64,000 nucleotides of DNA from Terriglobales bacterium (GCA_035518615.1 DATIXL010000138.1:669-64668); one strand, 5' to 3'; numbered from the stretch's first letter, positions 10,033 to 61,610 are shown. Numbers and translations are program-made. Notes: generated by a model from the sequence alone, not told the origin.

Positions 10033-10228
10033 GACGCCGGGCACGCGATTTTCTCATGCAACGCATCGACGGAATGTTTTCTGGCAGCGGGCCTCGCAAC
10101 GCCGGAAATAGATCCTGGCGAATGGAGGATGGAAAGTCCTATGAGGAGGGAGTCGTCCGGAGTAACGTGTTCCCAACTTTCGGCGTCATACTATGTACAG
10201 GTCATCTGCCGCACTGACGGGGGTGAGT

Positions 10229-18726: not shown

Positions 18727-18811
18727 AGAAATCACGTTGGGTGAAGGACTCTCTGGGATGCTACTGGAGTTGGGAAGAGCGGGTCAAACCTCGGGCAGGC
18801 CTCCCGATTTT

Positions 18812-19555: not shown

Positions 19556-19584
19556 GTTATTCTCTGCCCCCCGACTTTGGGGTT

Positions 19585-20010: not shown

Positions 20011-20067
20011 AGTGTGTTCATTATGCTACGTAAATCCAAAAAAGTGTAGCAAGAAAACATCATTATG

Positions 20068-21033: not shown

Positions 21034-21159
21034 TTCGCGGAGAGCATAGCACGGCGCGCTTTTCCAAGTGACGAAATTCGCTGAACTCCGGCAATGAACG
21101 CTTCGCCGCGCGACCGCCGATTGGCCGCATTTCCTTGCCTTATGTTAGGATTACCGCAC

Positions 21160-21708: not shown

Positions 21709-21746
21709 GAGCGTTATTTTCTAAGAGTGTCTCTCAGGACTGAGAT

Positions 21747-22739
21747 GTGACTCACCGCTTGCGCGATCTGCTTGCCCTTGAACCGCTTTCCGCGGACGAA
21801 CTCACTTTTCTTTTGGACCAGAGCAAGCCTTTTCAGGAAATTCAGCGCCACCCGCTTAAAAAGCTTGCCACACTTCGCGGCAAGACGGTTGCCCTTGCCT
21901 TCTTCGAAACTTCCACAAGGACACGCATCAGCTTCGGCACCGCTGCCTCAAGGTTGGGTGCGGACCAGATGAACCTTCAGGCCGAGGCCTCGAGCCTTAA
22001 GAAGGGAGAAACCCTGCTGGATACGGCGTTCAACCTAAATGCCATGAAGCCGGACTGCCTGGTAATGCGCCACGCAGCTTCCGGTGCTCCGGCGTATGTC
22101 GCGCGGCATTTGGACATTCCCGTGGTGAACGCGGGAGACGGCACGCACGAACATCCTTCGCAAGGTCTGCTTGACGCCCTGACGATCCGCGATCGGCGGG
22201 GAACAATCGAGAACTTGAACGTCACGATCCTGGGCGACATCCTGCACAGCCGGGTCGCTCGTTCAAACATCCATCTCTTGGGAAAATTCGGCTGCCGATT
22301 CACTCTCTGCGGTCCCGCCATGTGGGTACCCCGCGAACTGGAGCGCATCACTCCCGGTACGTCCATCCGCTGCGTTTACCGCATCGAAGAGGCCCTCGAA
22401 GACGCCGACGTGATTCTCATGCTGCGGGTGCAGACCGAGCGCCTACACGAGCCGGCGCTTTCCCCCAACGACTATATCCAGCTTTACCAGTTGCATTCCG
22501 AACGGCTCCGCCTTGCCAAGCCGGACGCGATCGTTCTGCATCCCGGCCCCATGAATCGCGGCATTGAGATCACCCCTGAAGTTGCGGACGGGCCGCAGTC
22601 CTGCGTTCTCGAGCAGGTCACCAACGGAGTCGCCGTCCGCATGGCCATCCTTTATCTGTTGGTCACCGGAGCTGCGGAAGACGGTACCCATCCCGCTCTG
22701 GAAGGAAAACCCAAGGAATCCGCTCATGCTACTGATTAG
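21747..22739 (+). CDS. pyrB: Aspartate carbamoyltransferase catalytic subunit
   Basis: FFETSTRTR, HEHPSQGLLD, LHPGPMNRG. Confidence 0.96.
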   Translation: MTHRLRDLLALEPLSADELTFLLDQSKPFQEIQRHPLKKLATLRGKTVALAFFETSTRTRISFGTAASRLGADQMNLQAEASSLKKGETLLDTAFNLNAMKPDCLVMRHAASGAPAYVARHLDIPVVNAGDGTHEHPSQGLLDALTIRDRRGTIENLNVTILGDILHSRVARSNIHLLGKFGCRFTLCGPAMWVPRELERITPGTSIRCVYRIEEALEDADVILMLRVQTERLHEPALSPNDYIQLYQLHSERLRLAKPDAIVLHPGPMNRGIEITPEVADGPQSCVLEQVTNGVAVRMAILYLLVTGAAEDGTHPALEGKPKESAHATD

Positions 22740-24000
22740 GAACGGCCGCGTTCTAGACCCTGCCTCGGCAACTGACGCGCCGCTGGACATTCGTCTCGAA
22801 GGCGACACGATTCGCGAAGTCGCTTCTCCTGGAAAACTTGCTGCTTCCGAGAACGCCCAGGTTCTTGACGCTTCGGGCCTTATCGTCGCTCCCGGATTCA
22901 TTGACCTGCACGCCCATCTTCGCGAACCGGGGCAGGAATCCTCGGAAACGATCGAGACGGGATCGCGTGCCGCGGCGCGCGGCGGTTTCACTGCCGTCTG
23001 CTGCATGCCCAATACCAAGCCGGTGCACGACAACGCCTCCATTACGCGCTTCATCTTGGACAAGGCGCGCAGCTCCGCGAGCACGCGCGTTTGGCCCATC
23101 GGTGCCGCCAGCGTCGGCAGCCAAGGTGAGGCGATTGCGGAAATCGCGGGAATGAAAGAGGCTGGGATCGTGGCGGTATCGGACGATGGAAAACCGATCG
23201 CACCCGCGCGGCTCGCCCGGCAAGTGATGGATTATTGTCGTTCACTCGACCTTCCGGTGATCGAGCACGCCGAAGATGTGTCGCTTGCCGCAGGCGCTGT
23301 GATGCGTGAAGGCGTCGCTTCAACGCGCCTGGGGCTACGCGGCATGCCCGCAGAGGCCGAGTCGGTGTGTGTTGCCCGTGACGTCCAACTCGCCGCATTG
23401 ACCGGGGCCCGCGTGCACATTGCGCATCTCTCCGCAACGGCTTCGCTTGTACAGGTGCGCTGGGCAAAATCGCAAGGATTGCGCGTTTCGTGCGAAGTGA
23501 CTCCGCACCATTTCACGCTGATTGACGAAGACGTTCAATACGACTCTCGCTATAAAATGAATCCGCCGTTGGCATCGCGAGAAGACCGCGAAGAGCTCCT
23601 TGCGGGTCTCGCGGACGGCGCTGTGGACGCGATCGCCACAGATCACGCGCCTCACGAGCCGGCGCTGAAGGACGTCGAATTCGACCGCGCCCCTTTCGGC
23701 ATCCTCGGCTTTGAAACCGCTCTTGGGCTTGCGCTCGAAAAGCTTGTGCACTCCGGCCGAATCAGCTTGATGCGCATGGTCGAACTCTTCACCACGGGCC
23801 CCGCTCGAGTCCTGGGCATCGAAAGGAAGATCGCCCCCGGCCAGCCTGCTGATCTTACGCTTTTTTCGGTAGATCACGGCTGGACTTACTCCACGAAGGA
23901 GTCACCGAGCAAGTCCCGCAACTCGCCCTTTGACGGCCATTCGTTCCGCGGCGGGCCCATGGCCACCATCGTAGCGGGCCGCGTGGTTTTCAAACGGTAA
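22726..24000 (+). CDS. pyrC: Dihydroorotase
   Basis: PGFIDLHAHLREPG, CMPNT, ATDHAPH. Confidence 0.95.
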   Translation: MLLIRNGRVLDPASATDAPLDIRLEGDTIREVASPGKLAASENAQVLDASGLIVAPGFIDLHAHLREPGQESSETIETGSRAAARGGFTAVCCMPNTKPVHDNASITRFILDKARSSASTRVWPIGAASVGSQGEAIAEIAGMKEAGIVAVSDDGKPIAPARLARQVMDYCRSLDLPVIEHAEDVSLAAGAVMREGVASTRLGLRGMPAEAESVCVARDVQLAALTGARVHIAHLSATASLVQVRWAKSQGLRVSCEVTPHHFTLIDEDVQYDSRYKMNPPLASREDREELLAGLADGAVDAIATDHAPHEPALKDVEFDRAPFGILGFETALGLALEKLVHSGRISLMRMVELFTTGPARVLGIERKIAPGQPADLTLFSVDHGWTYSTKESPSKSRNSPFDGHSFRGGPMATIVAGRVVFKR

Positions 24001-35773: not shown

Positions 35774-37915
35774 CTAGACCGGCCGGCGAATCCCCAGCTT
35801 GCGCATGCGGGCTTGCAGGGTGGTGCGTTTCATTCCTAGAATCGTGGCTGCGCCCCGCGGCCCGGCAATCCGCCATTGGGTTTGCCGCAGCGCTCTCAGA
35901 ATGTGCTGCCGCTCCGCTTCCTCCATTGTCGCTAGAGACAATCCTGCCGTAACGGGCGAGAGTTCCTGCGCAGGTGCGGTCGCCGCAGCCGCTCCATTGG
36001 GCGGCCGGAGTTCGCTCAAGGGAACGCGCAATTCCTTCCCCGGCGAAAGCAGCACGGCCCGCTCGATCAAGTTCTCCAGCTCTCTCACATTGCCTGGCCA
36101 GGAGTAATTCACCAGCGCGTCCATCGCTTCCGACGGAACGTACTCGACCGTCTTGTTCAGACTACGGCTGAATCTCTGCACAAAATAACGCACCAGCAGG
36201 GAAATATCGTCGCGGCGCTCGCGTAGCGCCGGAATCTGGATCGGGAAAACGTTCAAGCGATAATAAAGGTCGCTCCGGAAAACGCGCTCCGCAACCAGCC
36301 TGTTCAGGTCCGCATTCGTGGCCGCAACCACGCGCACATCCACTTGCTGCGTGCGGTTGCTGCCCAGCCGCTCGAATTCCTGTTCCTGAAGAACGCGCAG
36401 TAGTTTTGGTTGTAATTCCAGCGGAATATCTCCGACTTCATCCAGAAAGATCGTTCCGCCATTGGCCATCTCGAACCTGCCAATTTTCTGGTTGACCGCT
36501 CCCGTGAACGCGCCGCGCTCGTGCCCAAAGAGCTCCGATTCCAGCAGGCCGGAGGGAATCGCGGCGCAGTTCACTTTCACGAACGTGCGTTCCCGCCTTG
36601 GGCTCAAATTGTGAATGGCCCGCGCAAACAGCTCTTTCCCCGTTCCCGTTTCCCCAAGCAGCAACACGGTCGTGTTTGCCGGCGCGGCGAGCTCCACCTG
36701 AGCCAGCGCGCGCTTCAGCGCCGCGCTTTCGCCGATGATTTCCTCAAAATTGAGTTCGCTCCGGATCTCCTCTTCGAGGTACAGCTTTTCCACCGCCAGT
36801 TTATCTTTCAACGAGTCTATTTCCTTGAACGCCAGCGCGTTCTCCACGGCAATCGCGATCTGCGCCCCCGCCTGGTACAACAGTTCCACCTCGGGCGGAG
36901 AAAATGCTGCCTCGCTCCGACTGGCGAGGTTGAGCGATCCGAAGGTGCGCCCGTGCGTTGTGAGCGGCACGCAGCAGGCGGAAACAAGGCCCTGCCCCCG
37001 CAAAATGCGCACAATCTCCGCTCCAAAGCGATCCAGCTCTTTCCCTCGAAACACTTTTGTTTCGCCGCTGAGAATGCAGTTCCCCGCCGGCGAGCTCTCC
37101 AGGGGCACCGTGAGCTCCTTGTTCCTGGGAATGCTGTTCCCGCCCGGAAATTCCAGTGCGTGGATCTTCAAAAGATTCGTAGCGGGATCGAGCAGCGCGA
37201 GGCTCGTGTAGTCGTGGTGGATCACCCGGGTCAGCGCCGTCACAATCCCCCGGAATAATTCCTTCAGCTCCCGGCTCGTAACCAGCACGTTGTTGATTTC
37301 CAGCAGCACTTGCAGCCGGTCGCGTTCCTGCGCGAGCTGTTTCTGATAAGCCTCCGCCGATTCGAAGTTCAGCGCGTTGTCCACTGCCACCGCAACCTGC
37401 GCTGTAACCCGCCGCATGAATTCGATCTCCGTCGGCGTCAGCCCCAGCGGCACGACGCGCCCAAAACCCAGCGCCCCGATTCTGCGTTGCGCCGTCGTCA
37501 AGGGCAGAATCACGATGGAGCGCACTCCCTGCTCCAGCAAATGCTGTACAAACTCCGGAAAGCGCGTTTCTTCTTCGAGATCGTGAACCACAAACGCCTG
37601 CTGCGTTTCCCAAACCCAGCCCGAGGGATACACCCCCACCGGCACTTCGCTCCCCGTATCTTTCTCCGTGGGAACCCGGCTTTCCAAAACGTGCAGCCGC
37701 ATCACGTTGCGGGCGGGATCGTGCAGAACCAGGGAGAGAAAATCGAACTCGATCACGGAATGCAGGCGTTCCGCAAGGTCGTGGAAGAGCACCGGCAAGT
37801 CGCGCTGCTGCGCGATCACTTCGCTCACTTCCAGCAAGGCTTCCAGTTGCCGCCGGGAATGGTCCATCCGCGCAAACGGTGCTGTTTCCAGTGGGGGAGC
37901 CGCGTTTTCCGCCAT
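35774..37915 (-). CDS. FhlA-like sigma54 enhancer-binding protein (GAF-GAF-AAA+-HTH)
   Basis: GETGTGKE, ESELFGHERGAFTGA, FLDEVG, WPGNVREL, C-terminal HTH. Confidence 0.93.
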   Translation of the reverse strand: MAENAAPPLETAPFARMDHSRRQLEALLEVSEVIAQQRDLPVLFHDLAERLHSVIEFDFLSLVLHDPARNVMRLHVLESRVPTEKDTGSEVPVGVYPSGWVWETQQAFVVHDLEEETRFPEFVQHLLEQGVRSIVILPLTTAQRRIGALGFGRVVPLGLTPTEIEFMRRVTAQVAVAVDNALNFESAEAYQKQLAQERDRLQVLLEINNVLVTSRELKELFRGIVTALTRVIHHDYTSLALLDPATNLLKIHALEFPGGNSIPRNKELTVPLESSPAGNCILSGETKVFRGKELDRFGAEIVRILRGQGLVSACCVPLTTHGRTFGSLNLASRSEAAFSPPEVELLYQAGAQIAIAVENALAFKEIDSLKDKLAVEKLYLEEEIRSELNFEEIIGESAALKRALAQVELAAPANTTVLLLGETGTGKELFARAIHNLSPRRERTFVKVNCAAIPSGLLESELFGHERGAFTGAVNQKIGRFEMANGGTIFLDEVGDIPLELQPKLLRVLQEQEFERLGSNRTQQVDVRVVAATNADLNRLVAERVFRSDLYYRLNVFPIQIPALRERRDDISLLVRYFVQRFSRSLNKTVEYVPSEAMDALVNYSWPGNVRELENLIERAVLLSPGKELRVPLSELRPPNGAAAATAPAQELSPVTAGLSLATMEEAERQHILRALRQTQWRIAGPRGAATILGMKRTTLQARMRKLGIRRPV

Positions 37916-38084: not shown

Positions 38085-38361
38085 TTCTTTCATTTGCATA
38101 GTCTCCGAATCCGGGACTGCGCAACATTTTCCACCTGTTCTACCTGGGATCTCCTGCGCGTGCGCCGCCGCCTTTGATCCTGCAAGGTCCCATCGCTCCG
38201 GGGACCACCGCCTCGCGGTTTCCTGCGCGCGTATAGACACCTAACGCAAAAGCGGCGTTGCGTGACGCAAAATGCGTCGAGCAGTTTTTTTGGCCCTTAT
38301 TGTCCCTCCGTCATCCTTGCGGATCCCAGTTCGGACCGATGGGCATCAAGGTTCGCACAGA

Positions 38362-40560
<2,199 letters not shown>

Positions 40561-40598
40561 TCAGAAAGTTAAAACAAAACTCTTGTCAACGGCGTGCG

Positions 40599-41024
40599 CT
40601 AACGGGACACGCGGCGCGGAGCACACTTCGCGCAAAGCCCGCGAAAAATCAGTTCGCACTCGCGAAGAGTGCGCTTGCCGAGGGAGCGCGAACGCGGGCG
40701 GGGCACGTCGTACCAGTCAATGTCCTCCACAGTGCCGCAGCGGTCGCAGATGAAATGGTGATGGTGCAAGTCGCGCGCGTCGAAACGCGCGGCGCGGCCT
40801 TCGACGGCGACTTCACGCACCAAACCAGCCTTCACAAGATCGCGAAGATTGTTGTAGGTGGTGGCGCGGGAAGAGCGGGGATCCACGCGATTCACGGCCT
40901 CAAAGATTTCCGTGGCCGTGGGATGGCCGTGGCAATCCATCAGGAAGGCCATCACCGCATAGCGCTGCGGAGTGCAGCGCAGGCCGCTGCTCTCCAAGGA
41001 TCGCTTAATCGCCGCAGTATCCAT
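40599..41024 (-). CDS. perR: Fur-family regulator, PerR-like
   Basis: HPTA, RFD, HHHHFICDRCG, VED, CAKC. The Asp in VED is PerR-type, and the gene lies directly upstream of katG. Confidence 0.82.
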   Translation of the reverse strand: MDTAAIKRSLESSGLRCTPQRYAVMAFLMDCHGHPTATEIFEAVNRVDPRSSRATTYNNLRDLVKAGLVREVAVEGRAARFDARDLHHHHFICDRCGTVEDIDWYDVPRPRSRSLGKRTLRECELIFRGLCAKCAPRRVSR

Positions 41025-41031
41025 CTGGGGC

Positions 41032-41046
41032 TTAGAATATATCTAA
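41032..41046. promoter_or_regulatory. Palindromic Fur/PerR/Irr-like operator upstream of perR
   Basis: TTAGA-ATATA-TCTAA inverted repeat 7 nt upstream of the perR ATG. Confidence 0.6.
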
Positions 41047-41422
41047 TGTGAAATTTTGTCGAGAATGATGCCTTGGTTCGCCTCACGCGGGCTGACCATG
41101 TTTGCCGGGGTTCCTTATGTATCCTGCAGTGTTCAACCTCCAGAAATTTGGATTTCAGTTCCGCGCATGGCCACAGAGCAGGATTTCCAAACAATCGCTC
41201 GGCCATCCACCTTCAACGCCCCCAAGAAAATGTATCGCATTGGGATTTGGGAGATTTCGACTTCCCAAAACGGGCTGGGAACACGTCGGCGGGCACGCAG
41301 CTCACTCGGACTCAATAAGTCCGATAGGACCACCTTGGTCGTATTAGACTAACTCCATTCGATATGTTGGCCTTTCCGTAAAGCTCCGCGCCAAATTTTT
41401 TAGATTAGACTTCACTTTCTTG

Positions 41423-41450
41423 TTGACAATTCCTACAGCCGATGTAACTT
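41423..41450 (+). promoter_or_regulatory. Putative sigma70 promoter of the cytochrome operon
   Basis: TTGACA (41423-41428), 16-nt spacer, TAACTT (41445-41450). Confidence 0.5.
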
Positions 41451-41605
41451 GAAGGCATCCTTCCGGGCCCGTCTCATCCTGTGAACAGTTCTGGGATGTG
41501 ATGCCCTGCCGGCAAATTTACTGTGACGGAAGTGGTTGGGGTTGATGAAACTCACAGTAACACGTCTGATCCGACCCAAGAGTAGATTCGCTTAGGGGTG
41601 ACTGT

Positions 41606-42583
41606 ATGCCTTCGAAATGTGCCCTTTTCCTCTGGCTCGCTGCGTTTGGTGTGTCTGCCGCGCTCCTGCAGGCACAGCCGCCCGCCCACGGGCCCAAGAA
41701 AGACAAAACGAAGTCGGGCGAGACAACCCAAGCATACGTTCCGCCCGCCGATGCTTCTCAATACGTCGGTTCAGACACCTGCAAGACCTGCCACGAAGAT
41801 ATGCCGACGAAGGGCTTCTATAAAACTTTTGAGGATTCGCCTCATTTTGTAACGACCCTCAACACCGAGGGAGGTCCCGGGAAGCACGGTTGCGAAGCCT
41901 GCCATGGTCCCGGCAAAGCGCACGTGGATGGCGGCGGCGACAAGACCAAGATCTTTACCTTCAAGGACGCGTCCGCTCAGGAAATCAGCGCTCGCTGCCT
42001 CTCCTGCCACCAGTACGGACAGGAGCATTCCAATTATGCCCGCTCTGCCCATCTGCAGGCCGGAGTGAGCTGCATCGACTGTCACGATCCTCACCATCCA
42101 AAGGAATCGCAGTATTTGATGAAGGAAAAGGAACCCGAACTTTGCTACGGCTGCCACGTCGCCGAAAAGCAGCAGTTTGGCCTTCCATTTCATCACCGCG
42201 TGAATGAAGGCTATGTCTCTTGCAACGACTGCCACAATCCGCACGGAGGGTTCCTCGCCAATCAACTCCGCGCTTCCGCTACCGAAGATACGGTTTGCTA
42301 CAAATGCCATTCGGAAAAGGCTGGGCCGTTTGTTTACGAGCATGAAGCCGTGAAGATCGAAGGATGCACCTCGTGCCACACGCCGCACGGCTCTTCGAAT
42401 CCGCGCCTCCTCAAGCTTAATCAGGTGAACCTGCTTTGCCTGCAATGCCATGCCTTCCCAACGGGTCAAGGCCCCTCGGCGATCCCCACCTTCCACAACC
42501 AGGCGCAAAAATATCAAGCGTGCACCATGTGCCACACGGCAATCCACGGCTCGAATTCGAGCAGTGTCTTCTTCACCCCATAA
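41606..42583 (+). CDS. Decaheme c-type cytochrome, DmsE/MtrA/MtoA/PioA family
   Basis: Signal peptide plus exactly 10 CXXCH (CKTCH, CEACH, CLSCH, CIDCH, CYGCH, CNDCH, CYKCH, CTSCH, CLQCH, CTMCH); GPFVYEH and IHGSN family motifs. Confidence 0.93.
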   Translation: MPSKCALFLWLAAFGVSAALLQAQPPAHGPKKDKTKSGETTQAYVPPADASQYVGSDTCKTCHEDMPTKGFYKTFEDSPHFVTTLNTEGGPGKHGCEACHGPGKAHVDGGGDKTKIFTFKDASAQEISARCLSCHQYGQEHSNYARSAHLQAGVSCIDCHDPHHPKESQYLMKEKEPELCYGCHVAEKQQFGLPFHHRVNEGYVSCNDCHNPHGGFLANQLRASATEDTVCYKCHSEKAGPFVYEHEAVKIEGCTSCHTPHGSSNPRLLKLNQVNLLCLQCHAFPTGQGPSAIPTFHNQAQKYQACTMCHTAIHGSNSSSVFFTP

Positions 42584-42627
42584 GGGGGCCGGCGATGGGA
42601 GCAGCAAAGGCACAGGAGGATTTCAAT

Positions 42628-45084
42628 ATGCGAATGACGGTATCGAAGTGGTTTTCCCTCGCGACTTTCTGCTTGCTCTGCCTGCCGGCCGCAATGGCGC
42701 AGCAGGAACCCGAGCAGCAGGGCATTGATCAGGGCGATTACAACATCAAGCAGTCCATCGAATTCGGCGGACGTTTAACGAGCCTCTCCGGAGACTTGCA
42801 GTCCTACGACACCATGGTGAACTTGCAGCAAGGGCCCCGTTTGCTCGACTTCACGCTGGAGATGAGCTCCCTCAGCCATCACGCGACTTTGTTCGACCGC
42901 TTCTACTTCAGCAATTCCGGCTATGGCGGCGATCCCAACATGATTTCGCGTCTGCGTTTCAGCAAGAACAAGTGGTACGACTTTGATGCCCTGTTTCGCA
43001 AAGACGAGAATTTCTGGGATTATTCGCTGCAGGATAATCCATTGAATCCAGGCATTGCCGTCCCCAACGCTCCTGCAGGTTTTACCCCGATTTACAACAA
43101 TCCAGCCAATTTGGTGGGCACTGAAATCGTCGGCATCTCCCCGCACGATATGAACACACGCCGCAAGCTCGGCGATTATTCCCTGACTTTGCTGCCGACT
43201 TCGAAGATCCATTTCCGTCTGGGCTACGACCGCAATATCAATGAAGGCCCTGCTTTTACCACCATCCACCAGGGCACCGAGCAATTCCTGCTGGCCGACT
43301 CGAAAGCCACGGTGAACACATATCGCCTCGGCGTGGATTTTCGCTTCATTCCCCGAACCAACATCAGTTATGACCAGGTCTGGAACGACTTCAAAGGCGA
43401 CGTCGGAACAATCGATCCGAACGCACAATTCAACGTCGGCGCCGGGCTCCCTCTCGTGGATCTTGGCGTTTCCTGGAACCCCACGGCGAACACTCCCTGC
43501 GCCACCACTTTCTCCGCCACCACGGGTCTCGTCAACCCTGCCTGCAGCGGTTATTACTCTTACTTGCAGACTTCGCGCAGCCGTACCAATGCCACCACCG
43601 AACAGCTCAGCTTGCAGTCCAATTATTGGAAGAATTTGGAATTTTCGGGCAAATTCAGCTATACCGGCGCGGACTTGGAAGACGATGGTTACTCCCAAAA
43701 CTTCGTGGGTCTTGAGTCCCGCACCTTCCTCGCCAATGACACCACTAACGGGCCGATCTTCGGTCGCCATGTTGCCGCTTATGCCGATCTTGGCGCCACC
43801 TGGTACATCAACAGCCACATCAGCATCCTCGATTCCTTCCACTTTGAAAATTTCCGCGACCCCATGGAATTTGATTCCTCGGTCTGCTCGTTTTTCAGTA
43901 ACAGGTTGAATGTGCCCATCACCGCGTTCGCAACCACTGCGACTCCTCCCGTGACCTGCACTCCGCCGGCAGGCACGGCGATTGCGGCTTCGGTCACGCA
44001 TTCCACCAGCTCCGGCGCGGATGCCGCACTTCTCATCAACAGCAACTACTTGCAGCAGGACGAGAAGACCAACCTCGCCCAGGTAAATTGGCAAGTCAAC
44101 CGCCACTTCGGCGCCCATGCCGGTTGGCGTTATCGCCATCGCATGATCGCTGACGATTTCTTTACCCTGAACTCTGAAATCTATTATCCGGGCACGGCGG
44201 CGAGAGGCGATTGCGCCGGTTTTACCCTCGCCAACCCCGTCCCCGGATGCACCATGAACGCCGATGGCTCGCTCTCTTTTTTGACCCCGGACGCAACCTA
44301 TGTTCCGCCGGACCAGTTGTTTATCAACGAAAACGCCGCCGTATTTGGCTTCTGGGCCCGTCCCACAGATAATTGGCGCATGACCTTCGACACCGAATTC
44401 ATGACCGCGGACAACGCCTTTACGCGCGTCAGCCCACTCTCCTCGCAAAACTATCGTTTCCGGACAACCTACAAGCCCGCTACCTGGCTCAGCCTCAACG
44501 GCAACGCGTTAATCTGGCAAGGCAAGAACAATGTCGGTCAACTCTTCCTCGAGCACAATCGCATGGTCGGAGTCTCCGCTTTGATCCAACCCATGGAGAA
44601 AGTCACCCTGGACATCGGCTACAACTACGATGACATCTATTCACAAATTCCCATCTGCTTTACCAGCACGGCCAACGGTATCGTGAATCCGGGAATCGGG
44701 GCCTGCCCGAATGTCGCGGGGCTCGTCATGGACATCTCCACTTACGTGAACAAGACGCACACCGGCTACTTCAACTTTAGTTACTCACCGGTCCGGAGGT
44801 TTACCGCTCATATCGGCGCGAATCTCACGGGAACGGATGGCAGCGAACTGCGGCTCGATCCTCAAGCCACTGTACCCATTCAGGTCACCGGACCACTCAA
44901 TTCCAGCTGGCTGCATCCTTTTGGCGGAGTGGATATCCTGATTGCAAATCGCTGGACGGGAAAGGCCTATTGGGATTATTACGGTTACCATGAAGACCAG
45001 ACCCCGGGCGCTTTTCAGGATCTCTACGCTCCGCGTAATTTCCGGGGCAATTTGGTCACGCTTTCGGTACGATACGCTTTCTGA
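42628..45084 (+). CDS. Outer-membrane beta-barrel, MtrB/PioB-like partner of the decaheme cytochrome
   Basis: AGGAGG SD, signal peptide, 818 aa, aromatic/alternating beta-strand pattern, C-terminal SVRYAF. Position directly after the decaheme gene. The family call rests partly on synteny. Confidence 0.8.
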   Translation: MRMTVSKWFSLATFCLLCLPAAMAQQEPEQQGIDQGDYNIKQSIEFGGRLTSLSGDLQSYDTMVNLQQGPRLLDFTLEMSSLSHHATLFDRFYFSNSGYGGDPNMISRLRFSKNKWYDFDALFRKDENFWDYSLQDNPLNPGIAVPNAPAGFTPIYNNPANLVGTEIVGISPHDMNTRRKLGDYSLTLLPTSKIHFRLGYDRNINEGPAFTTIHQGTEQFLLADSKATVNTYRLGVDFRFIPRTNISYDQVWNDFKGDVGTIDPNAQFNVGAGLPLVDLGVSWNPTANTPCATTFSATTGLVNPACSGYYSYLQTSRSRTNATTEQLSLQSNYWKNLEFSGKFSYTGADLEDDGYSQNFVGLESRTFLANDTTNGPIFGRHVAAYADLGATWYINSHISILDSFHFENFRDPMEFDSSVCSFFSNRLNVPITAFATTATPPVTCTPPAGTAIAASVTHSTSSGADAALLINSNYLQQDEKTNLAQVNWQVNRHFGAHAGWRYRHRMIADDFFTLNSEIYYPGTAARGDCAGFTLANPVPGCTMNADGSLSFLTPDATYVPPDQLFINENAAVFGFWARPTDNWRMTFDTEFMTADNAFTRVSPLSSQNYRFRTTYKPATWLSLNGNALIWQGKNNVGQLFLEHNRMVGVSALIQPMEKVTLDIGYNYDDIYSQIPICFTSTANGIVNPGIGACPNVAGLVMDISTYVNKTHTGYFNFSYSPVRRFTAHIGANLTGTDGSELRLDPQATVPIQVTGPLNSSWLHPFGGVDILIANRWTGKAYWDYYGYHEDQTPGAFQDLYAPRNFRGNLVTLSVRYAF

Positions 45085-45146
45085 GGTGGTTTCCGGTCGC
45101 TGCCACAGATTTCGTTCTGCAACTTCTTTTCTGGGGGAAAACCGCT

Positions 45147-45476
45147 ATGAGACTCAACTGGACAACAAGGATCGCGCTAGGCGCGGGCATTCTTGCGGCC
45201 GCAGGGATGCTGGCAGTTTCGGCTCGTTCTGCCGAGAGTGCCGCAACCGTCTATAAGCAGAAGTGCGCAGGTTGCCACGGTGCGGATGGTAAGGCCGACA
45301 CGCCCGCCGGCAAAGCCATGAAGGTTCCCAGCTTTGCGGAATCAAAAGGTAAATCCGATTCGGAACTCGCGGACATCATCGAAAAGGGCAAGGGCAGGAT
45401 GCCCAAGTACGGCGCCAGCATGAAGCCGGACGAAATCAAGGAGATGGTCGCCTATATCCGGACTCTCGCGAAGTAG
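45147..45476 (+). CDS. Monoheme class I cytochrome c (periplasmic shuttle)
   Basis: Signal peptide, single CAGCH, GRMPKY distal Met. Confidence 0.92.
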   Translation: MRLNWTTRIALGAGILAAAGMLAVSARSAESAATVYKQKCAGCHGADGKADTPAGKAMKVPSFAESKGKSDSELADIIEKGKGRMPKYGASMKPDEIKEMVAYIRTLAK

Positions 45477-45663
45477 TGGCCCGGTTCTGCCGCGAATCGC
45501 GGCGGAGCCATCTGATCCCTTGGCAGACTCTGAGGCTCATTCCTTCGTTCAGAGTGTCGAGTCCCAAGACGGAATTCTCTTGGTCCTCTCGCCTGCAAGG
45601 AGAGGCGCACTTGCGGTTTTCGTGTGAATGTTCACGGAGGAAAGTGAGGTGTAACTACTTCCT

Positions 45664-47112
45664 ATGGGTTCAGCTGATTTCCTCCGAGACCGGTTTCGTC
45701 TGTTCTACTTCTTTGGCCAGAATTGGATTTCTCTGGCGGGCGCCGTCCTTACCACCAGCAGCGCCTTCACGCTGATCGCTTTTTGGTTTTACGAGTTCGC
45801 TCTTTCCGGCCCTGTCCATCCCTACGTCGGGATTCTCGTTTACCTGATTCTGCCTTTCGTGTTCGCATTCGGCTTGGTCCTCATTCCCATCGGAATTTTC
45901 CTGCACCGCAGGCGTCTTCGTGCTCTAAATCAGATTCCTTCCGTCTATCCCCATGTCAACCTCAGTTCCCCCGGTGTGCAACACACCGCGCTCTGGATCG
46001 GAGGTCTCACTTTTCTGAATTTGCTCATCATGGGCACCGCATCCTACAGCGGCGTCACTTATATGGACTCCGCCAAGTTCTGCGGCCAGACCTGCCACAC
46101 CGTCATGCAGCCGGAGTTCACCGCCTACCAGAATTCCCCCCATGCCCGTGTTGCCTGCGTGGAATGCCATATCGGCCCGGGTGCCGGGTGGTTCGTTCGC
46201 TCGAAGCTCTCCGGCGTCCGCCAGGTTTTTGCCGTTACATTTGACACCTACTCCCGGCCCATCCCTTCTCCCGTCAAGTATCTCCGTCCTGCGCGCGAAA
46301 CCTGCGAACACTGCCATTGGCCGCAACGCTTCAGCGGAGATCGCTTCCTGGTTCTCACCAAATATCAGGACGACGAAAAAAACACCAAACTTACAAGTAT
46401 CGTCGTCATGAAAATCGGCGGCCGCAACGGCGAAACCGATGTCGGTATTCATGGCCATCACATTTCCGCGCATGAAAATCTTCAGTACATCACCACCGAT
46501 CGCCAGCGCCAGGTGATCCCGGTCGTCTTCTACACCGACCCCAGCGGCAAGACCACCAAGTACGTCTCCACGGACATCAAGGCCACGCCACAGCAGCTCG
46601 ACGCTGGCGAGCGCCGCGTGATGGATTGCATCGACTGCCACAACCGCCCGACGCATACCTTTGAAACTCCGGAGGAGGGCGTGGACAAGAGATTGGCGGA
46701 AGGCCTCATCAGTACGGATCTTCCTTTCATCAAGAAGGAAGCTGTTCAGGTTCTGAAGGAAAAATATGCCGATCGCGATACCGCGCAGCGAGAAATCGTC
46801 AGCCAGATCAATGATTTCTACAAAACCAACTACGCCGTCCTGTACCAAAGCCATACTTCCGCGGTGCAACAATCTGCCGAGCAGGTTGCAGGGGTTTATC
46901 TGCGCAATGTCTTTCCGGCCATGAACGTTACCTGGGGCACGTATCCCAACAATCTTGGACACATGGATTATCCCGGCTGCTTCCGCTGCCATGATGGCAG
47001 CCACACCAGCGCCGACGGCCAGACCATTACCAACGATTGTTCCGCCTGCCACACTCTCCTGGCGGTGGACGAGCAAAACCCCAAGGTCCTGACGGACTTG
47101 GGGGTACAGTAG
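45664..47112 (+). CDS. NapC/NirT-domain multiheme inner-membrane cytochrome c (ImcH-like)
   Basis: Three N-terminal TM helices; heme motifs CGQTCH (CX3CH), CVECH, CEHCH, CIDCH, CFRCH, CSACH; 482 aa. Confidence 0.85.
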   Translation: MGSADFLRDRFRLFYFFGQNWISLAGAVLTTSSAFTLIAFWFYEFALSGPVHPYVGILVYLILPFVFAFGLVLIPIGIFLHRRRLRALNQIPSVYPHVNLSSPGVQHTALWIGGLTFLNLLIMGTASYSGVTYMDSAKFCGQTCHTVMQPEFTAYQNSPHARVACVECHIGPGAGWFVRSKLSGVRQVFAVTFDTYSRPIPSPVKYLRPARETCEHCHWPQRFSGDRFLVLTKYQDDEKNTKLTSIVVMKIGGRNGETDVGIHGHHISAHENLQYITTDRQRQVIPVVFYTDPSGKTTKYVSTDIKATPQQLDAGERRVMDCIDCHNRPTHTFETPEEGVDKRLAEGLISTDLPFIKKEAVQVLKEKYADRDTAQREIVSQINDFYKTNYAVLYQSHTSAVQQSAEQVAGVYLRNVFPAMNVTWGTYPNNLGHMDYPGCFRCHDGSHTSADGQTITNDCSACHTLLAVDEQNPKVLTDLGVQ

Positions 47113-47151
47113 CCAGGCAATAGAAGGAAAGCTGACGTTCGGAGTGGTTCG

Positions 47152-49302
47152 ATGATGGGCTCGCCTGACGAAGACGGTTCGCGCCACTGTGTTCGAACGG
47201 CTGCGTTTTCCGCGTTGGCGTTCCTTCTGTTCGCGGCCTTTCCAATTCTCGCTCGCTCGCAGAGCCCCAAACCGCTGAAGCAGGATGAAGAATGCCTCTC
47301 CTGCCACGGCCAGCCGGACTTCAAATCAGAAAAGGGTAAGAATCTTTCGATTGATCCGGCGAAACACGCGAAGAGCGTGCATGGGATTCTCGGCTGCCGC
47401 GATTGCCACACGGATCTCAAGGAATTTCCCCATCCCGCCAAAATTCAGAAGGTACAGTGCTCCACCTGCCACGCGGACGAAGCTCACGATATTCCAAATA
47501 GCATTCACGCCGCGCTGGGCGAGGACGCCTGCCAATCCTGCCACGGTGATCCGCACGTCATCGAATCCGCAAAAGCCGCTTTCACGAACTGTAAAACCTG
47601 TCACGAGCAGGAAGTCAAGGGGCTTCAGGAAAGCATTCACGGCGAGGCCGCCAAATTCGGCGATCCTTACGCCCCGAATTGCGAATCTTGCCATGGTCCG
47701 GTACATAAAATCCTCTCGTCAGGCGATTCGAACTCCACGGTGGCGAAGAAGAATCTTCCAGGGACCTGCGCCACTTGCCACAGCAATCCGGAATTTCTCT
47801 CGCACCACAAAATTCCCTTCGCGCATCCCGTCGAGCTTTATCTTCAGAGTGTGCACGGCCGCGCCGTCCAGGCGGGAAACGCGAACGCCGCCGCGTGCTC
47901 CGATTGCCACGGCAATCACGCCATTTTCCCTGCTCGCGATCCCCGTTCGAGCATCAACCATTGGAACGTCGCGAAAACCTGCGGCCAGTGTCACACGGAA
48001 ATCGCAAAAACCTATCTCGCAAGCATCCATGGCCAGGCCATGCAGGAGGGCAACACCGACGCGCCCGTGTGCACCGATTGCCATGGCGAGCACCTGATCC
48101 TCGGCCCGAAAGAGCCCCAATCCCTCGTGAATGCCGCGCGCGTTTCCACGGTAACGTGCGGCCGATGCCACGGTGAAACGCGCCTCGCCGTCCGCTACAA
48201 CCTGCCGTTGGACCGCGTGCCGACCTACGCCGACAGCTATCATGGACTGGCGAACCGTGAAGGTTCGCAGACCGTGGCCAACTGCGCCTCGTGCCACGGC
48301 GTGCACAACATTTTCCCTTCCAGCGATCCCCGATCAACGGTGAATCCCGCGAATCTCGCCAAGACCTGTGGACAGTGCCACGCAGGGGCGGGGCAAACCT
48401 TTGCGATCGGCCCCGTGCACGTGATGATTTCGAGCGCGAACGCCAACCCGGTCGTGAAATGGATTCGCTGGGTCTATCTGACGCTGATTCCTTTTACGCT
48501 CGGTTTCATGTTGTCGCACAACTTGATTGACCTGCTTGCGAAAATGCGCCGCCAGGCCGTCCGGGTGAACGGCGGGCCTCAGGTCGTTCGCATGAATCTG
48601 TGGTTCCGCATTGCGCACTGGGGCGTGATGCTGAGTTTTCCCGCGCTCGTGATTACCGGATTCGCGCTGAAATATCCGGACGCGTGGTACGCGCACCCGC
48701 TGTTGTATTGGGAAGGAACTCACTTCGCGCTGCGCGGCCTGTTGCATCGCATCGCTGCCGTGATTCTCATTGCGTCCACGCTCTACCACTTCATCCATCT
48801 TTCCGTGAACAGGCGCGATCGCGCGTTTTTGAAGGCCATGCTGCCGAAATTCAAGGACGCCACCGACCTCCTGCATGTTTTGCTCTACAACCTTGGCTGG
48901 CGGAAGGATTCGCCGAAGTTTGGAAAATTCAATTATGCGGAAAAGATGGAATATTGGGCGTTTTTGTGGGGCACCGCCGTCATGGCGCTCTCCGGTTTTC
49001 TGCTGTGGTTCAATAATTTCACGCTCCGTCATTTTCCGAAATGGATGGCCGACGCCGCCACTGCGGTGCATTTTTATGAAGCCATCCTCGCGACGTTCTC
49101 GATTTTAATTTGGCATTTTTATATCGTGATTTTCGATCCGCTCGTCTACCCCATGGACACCGCTTGGCTCGATGGAAAAGTTCCCGCCGAACATTACCGG
49201 CACACCAGGCCGGAATATCTCCACAAACTGCAAGAGCCGCCGCCAAAGCTTCCTGAAAAAGAAAAACCGCAGAAGGAAGAGAAAGAACAGAAAGAAGAGT
49301 AG
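47152..49302 (+). CDS. Multiheme cytochrome c / cytochrome b fusion (CbcL-like)
   Basis: Signal peptide, 13 CXXCH, then a multi-TM FdnI/b-type domain with His in RIAHW, LLHR, YHFIH, AVHF and IWHFY; GKFNYAEKMEYWA. Confidence 0.87.
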   Translation: MMGSPDEDGSRHCVRTAAFSALAFLLFAAFPILARSQSPKPLKQDEECLSCHGQPDFKSEKGKNLSIDPAKHAKSVHGILGCRDCHTDLKEFPHPAKIQKVQCSTCHADEAHDIPNSIHAALGEDACQSCHGDPHVIESAKAAFTNCKTCHEQEVKGLQESIHGEAAKFGDPYAPNCESCHGPVHKILSSGDSNSTVAKKNLPGTCATCHSNPEFLSHHKIPFAHPVELYLQSVHGRAVQAGNANAAACSDCHGNHAIFPARDPRSSINHWNVAKTCGQCHTEIAKTYLASIHGQAMQEGNTDAPVCTDCHGEHLILGPKEPQSLVNAARVSTVTCGRCHGETRLAVRYNLPLDRVPTYADSYHGLANREGSQTVANCASCHGVHNIFPSSDPRSTVNPANLAKTCGQCHAGAGQTFAIGPVHVMISSANANPVVKWIRWVYLTLIPFTLGFMLSHNLIDLLAKMRRQAVRVNGGPQVVRMNLWFRIAHWGVMLSFPALVITGFALKYPDAWYAHPLLYWEGTHFALRGLLHRIAAVILIASTLYHFIHLSVNRRDRAFLKAMLPKFKDATDLLHVLLYNLGWRKDSPKFGKFNYAEKMEYWAFLWGTAVMALSGFLLWFNNFTLRHFPKWMADAATAVHFYEAILATFSILIWHFYIVIFDPLVYPMDTAWLDGKVPAEHYRHTRPEYLHKLQEPPPKLPEKEKPQKEEKEQKEE

Positions 49303-58112: not shown

Positions 58113-58220
58113 CATGTTCCTGCCAACCAAAGTGTGCGGGCCCCTCGTGCTGATTCTCCAGCGGCTCCAGGTTTCAAAAAACGAGGTTCCGCTCATCGGG
58201 AATTCTTCAAGGAGAGTGAA

Positions 58221-61200
58221 ATGCGCAGAATTTCAGTTTTAAGCGTAGTGGGCCTCCTGTGTTTGGCCTTCGCGGGTGCGGCCCTCGCTCAGCGGCTCGA
58301 CGGAACTCTTCGCGTCACCGTTGCAGACAACACCCAGGCAAGCATTGAAGATGCCACTGTGACCGTCACGAATGAAGCGACCGGCGTTTCCGCAAGCACC
58401 ACCGCTTCCAGTGCGGGAACCTATGTGTTCCCGAACCTTCTCGTGGGCTCCTACACCGTCACGGTGGAGAAGGAGGGGTTCAAGAAGGCGATCCAGAAAA
58501 GCGTGGCCGTCGCCTCGAACCAGATTGCCGAGGCAAAGATTTTCATGGAAGTCGGCTCGGTCTCCGCAGTCGTGGAAGTCGAAGCGGGCGCGGAGCTCGT
58601 GAAGACCGAGTCTTCGGAACTTGGCGCTACCTTTGGGGGAAAAATAGTGAATGATCTCCCTCTCAATACTCTCGGGGGCGACGTCAAGGAATTCGCTGTC
58701 TTCGTTCCCGGAACGACGACGCAAGAGGGTGGAGTCCTCGGCTCGGGTGGATCGGTCGGCGGGACGCGCCCGCGTTTCAATGGCTTTTCGATTGACGGCG
58801 TGGACGACAACCGTCTTGACGTCAATGGTCCGACGCAGCCGGTCATCCAGGAATCCGTTGCGGAATTCAGCCTTCTAACCAACCAATTCAGCGCCGAATA
58901 TGGCCATTCCTCCGGCGGCCAGTTCAATATCGTCACGAAGTCTGGCACAAACGATTGGCACGGCGCCGGATGGTGGTTCAATCGCAATCGCGACTTGAAC
59001 GCCGCGACCAATCAGGAGAAAGTCGGCAATGCAGGCCAGCCGGACATTAAGAATCGTTACGATTACAACCGCTTGGGCGCCAGCGCGGGCGGCCCCATCC
59101 GGAAAGACAAGCTCTTCATTTACGGTGCCTACGAGTTTCAAAACAATGGCTTGGCGTCTCAAGGCGCCACCGTGACCATGCCCACCGCCAATGGAATCTC
59201 CCAGTTGATGGCCCTCAATCCCGATCCGGCCGTTGCAGACATCCTCAGCCAATTCCCCGTCGCCACGACGCCGAGCGGAACGACCAACGTCACCGTCAAC
59301 GGCGTTACCCAAGCCATTGAGGTCGGTCAGTTTTCCTCCACTGCCCCAAACTATTCAAATCAGCACGACTTCACCGTCAATGCCGATCTAAATCTCGGAA
59401 AACACCAGCTCCGGGGCCGCTTTTTGTACGATCGTTACCGCGCTCCCTGGGTCAATTTGATCCAGCCCCAGCCGCAATTCACCGGAACTGCAACCAACGA
59501 CGCTCGTAAAGTCATCTTCACCGATGCTTGGTCGCTGAGCAGCCGGGTGATCAACGATTTCCACGCTTCGTATTCGAGATTGAACGGCCTGAATCTCGAT
59601 ACGCCCGCTGCTTTTTCAAATTTTCCAAACGTGGAAATCGACGAATTTGGGAGCAATGTCGGTCCCCAAAGTCTGGCCCCACAAGGGTACACGCAGAACG
59701 TCTACCAGCTCATGGACGACGTCTCTTACATTCGCGGCAAGCATACGTTCAAGTTCGGCATCGAAGGGCGCAACTACATCGCTCCGACGAACGATTTGCC
59801 ACGCGCCCGGGGAGAATGGGACTACGCGACTCTAAATTCGTTCATCAATGACTTGGTTCCCGACGGCGCCAATGGCGCTCTGCGCGGCGCAGGCACGGGC
59901 AGCACAGCCGACAACTATCACGCGGTCTACTGGTTCGTTCAGGATGACTGGAAACTTACACCCCGTCTTACGCTGAACCTCGGTTTGCGTTATGAGTGGT
60001 CCGGCGTGCCTCGCGACGAAGCCAAGCAAGCCCTCAATTCCATCTCTGATGATCCCTCGTTGGGCATTTTCTTCCGCAAACCGAAATCGGACACAAACAA
60101 CTTCGGCCCGCACTTCGGTTTCGCATGGGATCCCACGGGTCGCGGCAACTGGGCCGTCCGTGGCGGAGCGCAAATTTCTTACGACGTGATTCCAAACAAT
60201 TTTGCGATCAACAGCCTGCCTCCCCAATTGCAGACGGAACAAAATCCCGCGATCACCTGTTCCCTCAGCCCGGCTCCGGCTTGGTGCGCCACCGGCCAGG
60301 GTTTTCTCGAAGGCGGCGGCCTCTTGCAGGTGAATGTGCCTCCGACGACCCAGGCGGATGCCCGTGCTGCTACGGGAAGTCTTATTCCCGACCAGACGAA
60401 TCCGAAGGTCATTACCTGGTCGCTCGGCGTTCAGCACGCAATCCTGCGCGATTCCAGCATCGAGGTCCGTTACGTTGGCACGCGCAGCTTGAGCCTGCCG
60501 GTGCAAATGCGCTTGAACTCCGCCTCCGCGTTTGATCCAAACGTTGCAGGCGGCGGCCTGGCCCCGCTTCCCACATATATCAATCCAAGCGATATCCCTT
60601 CCACGATGCCCGCGCCCGTGGACACCCTCGCGAATTTCCAGACCTTCTGCCCCAACCCAGGAGTTCAGCCGGTCGCCCCTTGCCGCAATCTTTCCGCGGA
60701 CGGCTTCCTGGGCAGCATGACCACTTTCCCGCCGATCGGCTCCGGGATCTATCATGCGGCTTCCGTGGACTTCATTCACCGGTTTGCAAAAGGCCTTTAT
60801 TTCCGCGTGAATTACACTTTCTCCAAGAACATTGACAATTCCACGAACGAATTGTTCAGCAGCTACGTCAACCCCCGCCGCGCGCAGGACGGCTTCGATT
60901 TTGCCAACGAGCGTGGACGGTCGGTGCTGGACCTGCCTCAGAAATTCGCGATGACTTGGGTGTACGACTTCCCCAACATCAATAGCGAAAACCGTTTCGT
61001 GCGTGGAATCGCCCAGGGTTGGGAGTGGAGCGGCACTTACCTGGCGCAGTCCGGCCAGCCGGTCACCCCTCTCTCCGGAGTGGACGCGAACGATAACGGC
61101 GACAACGCCGGGGACCGCACCGTTTTCAATCCCGCGGGCGCCGGCCTGACTGGCTCGACCGTCGAATCCGTCTGCAACGATGGCGCCGGCGGCGCGACCC

Positions 61201-61610
61201 GCATCGTCACTGACCCAACAACAAGTCCCTGCGCCGCCGCGAACACCATCGGCTATGTGGCCGTGGATCCCACCGCGCGTTTCATTCAGGCGGGAGTGGG
61301 TGCCCTTGCCACCACCGGCCGGAACACCGTCAGCACGCCCGGCTTGAACATCTGGAACATGTCCTTGTTCAAGACGGTCAAGTTCACGGAACGCGCCTCG
61401 CTGCAGTTCCGCCTCAGCACTTACAATACCTTCAACCACCGCAATTTCAGCATCGGCTTACCGACCAACAATGGCGCGCTCGACTCGAACACCAACACCA
61501 ATCCCTTGAACGCCGGTTATATCTTCGTCACCTCGCCGACGTTCCTCAACAAGTTCTCCTTCGACGGCGGCAGCCGCAACCTCGAACTCGGCCTCCGCCT
61601 CGTCTGGTAA
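58221..61610 (+). CDS. TonB-dependent receptor, Oar-like, with carboxypeptidase-regulatory-like domain
   Basis: GGAG SD, signal peptide, SIDGVDDN plug motif, FVQDDWK, C-terminal RNLELGLRLVW; 1129 aa. Confidence 0.92.
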   Translation: MRRISVLSVVGLLCLAFAGAALAQRLDGTLRVTVADNTQASIEDATVTVTNEATGVSASTTASSAGTYVFPNLLVGSYTVTVEKEGFKKAIQKSVAVASNQIAEAKIFMEVGSVSAVVEVEAGAELVKTESSELGATFGGKIVNDLPLNTLGGDVKEFAVFVPGTTTQEGGVLGSGGSVGGTRPRFNGFSIDGVDDNRLDVNGPTQPVIQESVAEFSLLTNQFSAEYGHSSGGQFNIVTKSGTNDWHGAGWWFNRNRDLNAATNQEKVGNAGQPDIKNRYDYNRLGASAGGPIRKDKLFIYGAYEFQNNGLASQGATVTMPTANGISQLMALNPDPAVADILSQFPVATTPSGTTNVTVNGVTQAIEVGQFSSTAPNYSNQHDFTVNADLNLGKHQLRGRFLYDRYRAPWVNLIQPQPQFTGTATNDARKVIFTDAWSLSSRVINDFHASYSRLNGLNLDTPAAFSNFPNVEIDEFGSNVGPQSLAPQGYTQNVYQLMDDVSYIRGKHTFKFGIEGRNYIAPTNDLPRARGEWDYATLNSFINDLVPDGANGALRGAGTGSTADNYHAVYWFVQDDWKLTPRLTLNLGLRYEWSGVPRDEAKQALNSISDDPSLGIFFRKPKSDTNNFGPHFGFAWDPTGRGNWAVRGGAQISYDVIPNNFAINSLPPQLQTEQNPAITCSLSPAPAWCATGQGFLEGGGLLQVNVPPTTQADARAATGSLIPDQTNPKVITWSLGVQHAILRDSSIEVRYVGTRSLSLPVQMRLNSASAFDPNVAGGGLAPLPTYINPSDIPSTMPAPVDTLANFQTFCPNPGVQPVAPCRNLSADGFLGSMTTFPPIGSGIYHAASVDFIHRFAKGLYFRVNYTFSKNIDNSTNELFSSYVNPRRAQDGFDFANERGRSVLDLPQKFAMTWVYDFPNINSENRFVRGIAQGWEWSGTYLAQSGQPVTPLSGVDANDNGDNAGDRTVFNPAGAGLTGSTVESVCNDGAGGATRIVTDPTTSPCAAANTIGYVAVDPTARFIQAGVGALATTGRNTVSTPGLNIWNMSLFKTVKFTERASLQFRLSTYNTFNHRNFSIGLPTNNGALDSNTNTNPLNAGYIFVTSPTFLNKFSFDGGSRNLELGLRLVW

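Follow-up and report, generated by a model that had tools for sequence, protein, structure and literature searches.

A five-gene cluster from a Terriglobales bacterium encodes a candidate electron conduit joining an MtrAB-like module to ImcH-like and CbcL-like cytochromes

We analysed a 64,000-nucleotide (nt) stretch of DNA from a Terriglobales bacterium (GCA_035518615.1 DATIXL010000138.1:669-64668; referred to below as the window, with positions counted from its first letter). Between positions 41606 and 49302 it contains a cluster of five genes, g1 to g5, encoding a decaheme cytochrome, a large outer-membrane beta-barrel, a monoheme cytochrome and two multiheme cytochromes of the inner membrane. 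Taken together, the products probably constitute a self-contained trans-envelope electron conduit between the quinone pool and the cell surface, through which electrons would likely flow outwards.

The first-pass annotation of this DNA had described five co-oriented, closely spaced genes with 30 heme motifs. All five open reading frames (ORFs) were confirmed on the + strand, over a span of 7.7 kb, with the following layout (lengths in amino acids, aa):

41025-41605: intergenic region of 581 nt, presumed to include the cluster promoter, shared with a divergent perR-like/katG pair
41606-42583, + strand: g1, 325 aa, ten CXXCH motifs; periplasmic decaheme cytochrome c of the DmsE/MtrA/MtoA family
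42595-45084 (public gene calls; alternative ATG at 42628), + strand: g2, large outer-membrane beta-barrel with no heme motifs
45147-45476, + strand: g3, 109 aa, one CXXCH; periplasmic monoheme class I cytochrome c
45664-47112, + strand: g4, 482 aa, five CXXCH and one CX3CH; ImcH-like inner-membrane multiheme quinol dehydrogenase
47152-49302, + strand: g5, 716 aa, 13 CXXCH; c/dihaem-b fusion of the CbcL/MtoC/MtrH family

The product of g2 is 829 aa long according to the public gene calls (start at 42595) and 818 aa when translated from the ATG at 42628. Depending on this start, the first gap in the cluster is 11 or 44 nt, and those that follow are 62, 187 and 39 nt. In total the five proteins carry 29 CXXCH motifs and one CX3CH, which gives the 30 originally counted; when their residues were shuffled, CXXCH appeared on average 0.18 times and at most twice. 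Eleven contigs, assembled independently from several samples of ENA and JGI and all representing one population, share the identical five-gene order together with its flanks, so the cluster is real and not an assembly artefact.

No further genuine ORF with heme motifs was found in the 64-kb window, the lone extra match being a shadow ORF antisense to katG. A gene for an MtrC/OmcA-type surface cytochrome is therefore absent from the window, as had also been noted at first. Terminator-like and promoter-like matches within the cluster did not rise above the expectation from shuffled sequence, and upstream of g1 no match to sigma-70, sigma-54, FNR or Fur-box patterns exceeded chance. Nor did simple sigma-54, FNR and Fur-box patterns show anything recurrent ahead of g1, either in the window or in related loci.

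The outer-membrane module and its periplasmic carrier

The decaheme protein g1 belongs, as proposed at the outset, to the DmsE/MtrA family. It scored 269.6 bits against TIGR03508 (DmsE), for which the cutoff is 192.2, over positions 1-257 of the 258 in the profile, and its residues 21-320 aligned with the MtrA chain of the Shewanella Mtr complex (6R2Q_A; phmmer, 9.2e-39). The protein has an N-terminal signal peptide and no lipobox, and members of its 90% cluster are named by NCBI 'DmsE family decaheme c-type cytochrome [Candidatus Acidoferrum sp.]'.

The first-pass annotation had regarded g2 as an MtrB-like large porin. The protein has a signal peptide and a C-terminus ending in RYAF, but sequence models did not place it in that family: the MtrB/PioB models PF11854 and TIGR03509, searched within Pfam and NCBIfam, gave no match at E≤0.01, and MtrB itself was not reached by sequence (see below). 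Among 55 relatives of g2, PF11854 produced just two weak matches (E 0.0056). The fold, in contrast, supports the assignment. An AlphaFold2 model built with 55 homologs (predicted local distance difference test score, pLDDT, 86.4; predicted template modelling score, pTM, 0.80) is all-beta with 27 long strand elements; from the single sequence, the pLDDT was 29. The best match of the model in the PDB, by Foldseek, was MtrB (6r2q_B; E 8.1e-15, ~9% identity), with a template modelling (TM) score of 0.70 when normalised to MtrB and 0.56 when normalised to g2. The runners-up were 22-strand TonB-dependent transporters, with TM scores of 0.3-0.4. For comparison, MtrB, PioB and MtoB are 26-strand barrels (PMC10654088). 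Because MtrB is the best structural match and a decaheme gene adjoins g2, we regard g2 as MtrB-like by modelled fold and gene context, lying outside the MtrB/PioB sequence family. The family to which it does belong is sizeable, since an exhaustive HMMER search recovered 1219 cluster representatives at E≤1e-3, with 219 of them at ≤1e-30.

Two further features of this module were observed. First, three cysteines of g2 (C306, C677 and C693) are invariant and a fourth (C291) is at least 90% conserved across the 55 homologs, in which mean column identity is 24%; this suggests that they may form loop disulfides or have some other functional role. Second, both proteins showed a lesser similarity to a Geobacter gene pair. 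Against the GSU2203 decaheme family g1 scored 223.8 bits, under the cutoff of 325, and residues 602-678 of g2 weakly matched the GSU2204 (seleno)protein family (E 1.9e-8), the only match of g2 in Pfam or NCBIfam. The g1-g2 module and the GSU2203/2204 pair may be distantly related.

The small cytochrome g3 has a signal peptide and a CAGCH motif with a methionine downstream, and matches PF13442 (2e-15) and PF00034 (6.5e-11). Its best relatives in the PDB are Kuenenia c552, c6 and CcoP-type domains. A structure of MtoD, the monoheme protein of Sideroxydans, is deposited in the same database; among the 54 PDB matches of g3 (E≤0.01), none is named MtoD.

Two inner-membrane cytochromes

According to Zhong and Shi, ImcH proteins have three N-terminal helices, a CX3CH motif by helix 3 and five to nine CX2CH motifs (PMC6295460). 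The product of g4 has hydrophobic segments at residues 22-40, 56-74 and 105-123 (13-35, 45-67 and 100-122 in GSU3259, the ImcH of Geobacter sulfurreducens; Table S3, PMC6295460), followed by CX3CH at residue 140 and CX2CH at 165, 214, 322, 439 and 459. The resulting spacing, 24/49/108/117/20, is nearly identical to that of GSU3259 (24/49/106/117/20/38) and of the Geothrix protein (24/49/109/117/20; Table S3, PMC6295460), and all motifs keep their positions in nine homologs. Residues 115-197 match the NapC/NirT domain PF03264 (32.7 bits, cutoff 24.1), and residues 106-219 match the NrfH chain 2j7a_C (3.9e-5). Thus g4 shares with GSU3259 the three transmembrane helices, the CX3CH after the third of them and the motif spacing, but it has six motifs where GSU3259 has seven. 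The six-motif form, ~480 aa long, is usual in Acidobacteria (Table S3, PMC6295460), and is found in Geothrix and other Acidobacteria as well as in Anaeromyxobacter. Judged by layout and motif spacing, g4 carries all the published hallmarks and is ImcH-like, in agreement with its original description as a NapC/NirT protein with three membrane helices.

The CbcL/MtoC/MtrH family is defined by a periplasmic c domain with 3-23 CX2CH motifs fused to a membrane domain of the HydC/FdnI b type; conserved histidines of the membrane helices serve as b-heme ligands, members with five helices exist, and 11-, 19- and 23-heme forms are known (PMC6295460). In g5, a signal peptide is followed by 13 CX2CH motifs within residues 48-411 and then by an FdnI/HydC dihaem-b-type membrane domain, which matches PF01292 over residues 480-664 (53.5 bits, cutoff 30.1), TIGR01583 at a level under its cutoff (3e-14) and the FdnI chain 1kqf_C (1.4e-6). 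Simple hydropathy gives five segments (~434-463, 487-505, 526-544, 602-620 and 643-661) and then a charged tail, and six membrane-domain histidines are invariant in eight homologs (H456, H489, H532, H546, H640 and H655). The last hemes of g5 are spaced 30,29,43,28,30,29,42,28, which is the CbcL pattern 29,28,43,28 (Table S2, PMC6295460) twice over; a four-heme unit therefore appears to have been duplicated. Overall, the spacing is nearer to Geobacter CbcL and to the 11- and 19-heme forms than to the pattern of Gallionellales MtoC. Among the 90% cluster mates, NCBI also uses the name 'cytochrome b/b6 domain-containing protein'. Compared with the Geobacter CbcL, GSU0274, g5 shares the multiheme c domain, the FdnI-like dihaem b domain and the spacing of the last hemes, but has 13 hemes rather than nine and five predicted helices after the heme domain rather than six. 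On its architecture, histidines and heme spacing, g5 is assigned to the CbcL/MtoC/MtrH family, and its earlier reading as a 13-heme c/b CbcL-like fusion holds.

The locus across Terriglobia and its flanks

A scan with the barrel protein, using one genome per GTDB species, yielded 42 loci, the nearest of which is 91% identical. Apart from a few contigs in Dormiibacterota and Patescibacteria bins, all come from Terriglobia or from Candidatus Acidoferrum/Acidiferrales metagenome-assembled genomes (MAGs). This, together with the NCBI names of the cluster mates, makes Candidatus Acidoferrum the host and bears out the Acidobacteriota-like origin first suggested from the DNA. The genus was named in 2021 for its homologs of Fe-cycling genes, and in acid soils it is correlated with genes for Fe(III) reduction (PMC7980381). 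The discordant contigs (L004 and L010, labelled Dormiibacterota, and L029, labelled Patescibacteria) carry an Acidobacteriota-type locus with 47-56% barrel identity, and are probably mis-binned or belong to mislabelled bins.

The core of the locus is strongly conserved. A decaheme gene lies directly upstream of the barrel gene in 41 of the 42 loci, the exception (L031) beginning inside the barrel gene, and 37 loci have a monoheme gene after the barrel. After this core, an inner-membrane module of some type is present in nearly all loci, and four types were found. In ~24 loci it includes a ~210-aa NapC/NirT (CymA-like) gene, giving a Sideroxydans-type set of components. Fourteen loci have a PetB-type cytochrome b and 14 a nonaheme cytochrome c; the two occur together in 13, with L004 having cytochrome b without the nonaheme protein and L011 the reverse. 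An ImcH-like gene is present after the core in nine loci and a CbcL-like gene in eight. In most loci (L005, L009, L024, L033 and ~20 others; at ~12.4-13.5 kb) this CymA-like gene, which has three CXXCH motifs, closes the locus in place of ImcH and CbcL. Variants of the CbcL-like gene were also seen. L008 (17948-20002) has two genes in its stead, one for an 11-heme c protein and one for a b-type protein of 277 aa, and in L003 (18195-22374) a 19-heme and a 13-heme CbcL-like paralog stand in tandem.

The nearest relative, L001, combines ImcH and CbcL with the cytochrome b/nonaheme pair. At the DNA level it is collinear with the window at 80-83% identity, apart from one clean 3.56-kb indel whose breakpoints coincide with the stop codon of the barrel gene and the start codon of g3 (L001:7537-11101 against window 45085-45146). 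The additional DNA in L001 encodes a second monoheme cytochrome c, a PetB-type cytochrome b (PF00033 and PF00032) and the nonaheme cytochrome c. Because the two loci are collinear except for this block, the window can be regarded as a reduced version of the locus.

A separate metagenome scan with an ImcH alignment gave 80 loci. Upstream sequence of 4.5 kb or more was available for 36 of them, of which seven have a barrel gene upstream of the ImcH-like gene; a CbcL-like gene lies immediately downstream in 17 of the 53 loci with enough downstream sequence. The exact five-gene order, with the same B3_4 and asd flanks, recurs on a 555-kb contig (L066) at 52-66% amino-acid identity, and linkage between ImcH and the barrel is found in lineages down to ~45% ImcH identity.

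It is possible, and we propose it tentatively, that the MtrAB-fold conduit of Terriglobia acts as a fixed socket for interchangeable inner-membrane modules (CymA-like, ImcH-like, CbcL-like, or cytochrome b with nonaheme c). The set present in each species would then determine the redox window of its extracellular electron transfer, and perhaps also the direction. The organism studied here would have shed the bc-type module and kept a minimal wire with ImcH and CbcL, forming a dual-entry switch between potentials that works as the unlinked pair of Geobacter does.

Two genes on the opposite strand face the cluster across the intergenic region:

40599-41024, - strand: Fur-family regulator, scoring best as PerR, directly upstream of katG
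38362-40536, - strand: katG catalase-peroxidase, forming with the PerR-like gene a pair divergent from the cytochrome cluster

The Fur-family gene was considered as a regulator of the cluster and rejected, since it scores best as PerR and directly precedes katG on the other strand. A 766-aa + strand ORF at 38272-40572 was likewise rejected as a gene, being a shadow of katG. A sigma-54 activator with a GAF domain (35774-37915, - strand) lies 3.7 kb upstream of the cluster, and relatives of it (52-62% identity) are found upstream of the cluster in L015, L017 and L028. Further away there is a gene for the selenocysteine-specific elongation factor SelB (16816-18735, - strand), from the presence of which the host probably makes selenoproteins. 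There is also a pyrimidine biosynthesis cluster (18812-24000) with genes for orotidine monophosphate decarboxylase, dihydroorotate dehydrogenase, a phosphoribosyltransferase, aspartate carbamoyltransferase and a dihydroorotase-like amidohydrolase. The window also encodes a FecR/DUF6600 protein (10193-11935, + strand) and two outer-membrane barrel proteins of a very large kind that is typical of Acidobacteria (6268-9870, - strand, and 58134-61610, + strand); one of this pair has CarboxypepD_reg and OMP_b-brl_4 domains and the other weak matches to TonB receptors.

Direction of electron flow and comparison with known systems

In the scheme that we favour, the five genes would be co-transcribed, and g4 and g5 would be two inner-membrane cytochromes that exchange electrons with the quinone pool, perhaps dividing the labour between them by acceptor potential. 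The monoheme protein g3, possibly alongside direct contacts, would hand electrons to g1, which would form a complex with g2 by threading through its ~26-strand MtrB-fold barrel so as to expose the last heme at the surface. The recurrent linkage of the genes and the short gaps between them, in which terminator-like matches stay at chance level, speak for this scheme. As the window encodes no surface cytochrome of the MtrC type, the conduit would be expected to react directly with soluble or closely apposed acceptors, much as MtoAB and PioAB do. Its most likely use is outward, in the anaerobic respiration of Fe(III), or of humic or particulate organic acceptors, in wetland soil. This direction is favoured because ImcH homologs are so far known only from Fe(III)-reducing bacteria (PMC6295460), because of the correlation of Candidatus Acidoferrum with genes for Fe(III) reduction (PMC7980381) and because the population comes from wetland soil.

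Several observations weigh against this scheme. Neither phmmer nor profiles of 34 and 55 sequences connected g2 to MtrB (6R2Q_B) at E≤10. Cytochrome c maturation genes were not found within the 64-kb window. As regards co-transcription, a search for RNA-seq runs containing the region found none, the seven runs that contain it all being wetland DNA metagenomes. In addition, a His/Met class I monoheme protein and the lack of an MtrC-type cytochrome are both typical of Fe(II) oxidisers (mtoAB-mtoD) and not of reducers, and the commonest relative of the locus carries a CymA-like gene, as Sideroxydans does.

The same wire could plausibly run inwards, in Fe(II) oxidation or electron uptake of the Mto/Pio kind, a reading that we consider less likely. 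Here electrons from Fe(II) or from organic matter in reduced form would enter at the surface-exposed g1, and g3 would deliver them to a terminal oxidase, with g5, and perhaps g4, pushing a part of them uphill into the quinone pool. A decaheme protein, a barrel and a monoheme cytochrome c without MtrC are indeed the component set of mtoAB-mtoD, and most of the Terriglobia relatives have the Sideroxydans-like set with its NapC/NirT gene. A class I protein of the His/Met type, g3 is related to c552, c6 and CcoP domains, which usually serve oxidases, but it found no MtoD in the PDB. Similarly, the CbcL-family protein MtoC occurs in such clusters of Gallionella ES-2 and Dechloromonas RCB (PMC6295460), but g5 departs from Gallionellales MtoC in its heme spacing. 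The adjoining katG/perR pair suggests a lifestyle exposed to oxygen; the abundance of Candidatus Acidoferrum, on the other hand, follows anaerobic markers as well as Fe(III)-reduction genes (PMC7980381). Finally, ImcH homologs have not been reported in any known Fe(II) oxidiser (PMC6295460).

More doubtful still is a conduit that is bidirectional or switched by potential, with g4 and g5 as alternative points of entry or exit at high and low acceptor potential, and with the inner-membrane modules at the locus setting the redox window of each species. By analogy with Geobacter, in which ImcH and CbcL serve different potentials (PMC6295460), the tandem of two distinct quinol dehydrogenase families could be read in this way, but it could equally represent one complex or redundancy. 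The four alternative module types at one locus across 42 species, and the clean removal of the cytochrome b/nonaheme module relative to the nearest relative, would fit such tuning, although drift and horizontal transfer may account for differences between modules, and sequence carries no readout of redox potential. We regard it as very improbable that the genes are neighbours with no common pathway, g1-g3 serving a periplasmic or extracellular reductase (compare DmsEF and dimethyl sulphoxide reductase) and g4-g5 being a quinol:cytochrome c module unrelated to it. In favour of this view, TIGR03508 takes its name from DmsE and its family also serves non-metal reductases, the 187-nt gap between g3 and g4 could house a promoter of its own and 29 of the 36 ImcH-like contigs with enough upstream sequence have no barrel nearby. 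Against it, neither the cluster nor its flanks contain a terminal reductase gene, DmsAB-like or other, the ImcH linkage recurs in divergent lineages and some inner-membrane module follows the core in nearly all loci.

Among the closest known systems, MtoAB-MtoD with CymA of Sideroxydans lithotrophicus ES-1 shares the decaheme protein, the large barrel, the monoheme cytochrome c and the lack of MtrC. In mto clusters, as here, a quinone-linked inner-membrane cytochrome is encoded in the cluster, and MtoC of Gallionella ES-2 and Dechloromonas RCB belongs to the family of g5. These systems, however, are from Betaproteobacterial Fe(II) oxidisers, and their barrels match the MtrB/PioB models whereas g2 does not. 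The window adds an ImcH-like gene, its g5 has 13 hemes with CbcL-like and not MtoC-like spacing, and its g3 has no match to MtoD. With Shewanella MtrCAB and CymA, the common ground is the similarity of g1 to MtrA and the fold shared by g2 and MtrB, but the window lacks MtrC/OmcA and the cluster lacks CymA. In Geobacter, imcH and cbcL are unlinked to one another and are paired with conduits of the Pcc/Ext type and triheme carriers of the PpcA type, with no MtrAB-type neighbour. The mtrABC cluster of Rhodoferax ferrireducens, which includes two cymA genes and mtrH, sets a precedent for several quinol dehydrogenases in one cluster, one of them from the CbcL family (PMC6295460); it differs in having CymA and MtrH but not ImcH, in having MtrC and in belonging to a proteobacterium. 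The EET1 and EET2 clusters of peat Acidobacteriota (Fiorito et al., bioRxiv 10.64898/2026.05.27.727921) are divergent Mtr-like porin-cytochromes of uncultured Terriglobia that have been modelled structurally and are transcribed in peat. They come from Terriglobales/UBA7540 and Bryobacterales, and ImcH, CbcL, inner-membrane modules and Acidoferrales go unmentioned in the text describing them.

The first-pass annotation had held that neither ImcH nor CbcL is part of an MtrAB operon. For CbcL this premise was wrong, because mtoC and mtrH, which belong to the CbcL family, are known to accompany mtoD in mtoAB/mtrAB clusters (PMC6295460). For ImcH it stands: a survey in 2018 found no mtrAB or mtoAB adjoining imcH (PMC6295460), and our search of the literature since 2018 for imcH beside mtrAB/mtoAB found no report. 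Neighbouring imcH and cbcL genes have precedents in some Desulfuromonadales and Syntrophus MAGs, as judged by adjacent locus tags (Tables S2 and S3, PMC6295460). All the kinds of component are known, and the joining of imcH to an MtrAB-like module looks to be the part that has gone unreported.

The value of the locus lies in this linkage, in the swapping of modules across Terriglobia and in a barrel family that MtrB/PioB screens miss. As the 7.7-kb cluster holds every step from quinone to surface, it is a compact candidate for heterologous expression. Moreover, since it joins inner-membrane parts of the Geobacter type to outer-membrane parts of the Shewanella/Sideroxydans type, the hand-off from ImcH and CbcL, and any difference in potential between them, could be tested against a single partner. 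Acidobacteriota are among the most abundant bacteria of soil and peat, and their role in the respiration of iron and organic matter is newly recognised (PMC7980381; bioRxiv 10.64898/2026.05.27.727921). Screens based on Pfam, NCBIfam and TIGR03509 overlook the barrel family of g2, with its 1219 cluster representatives, and surveys of extracellular electron transfer in soil that demand an MtrB/PioB match therefore under-count systems of this kind.

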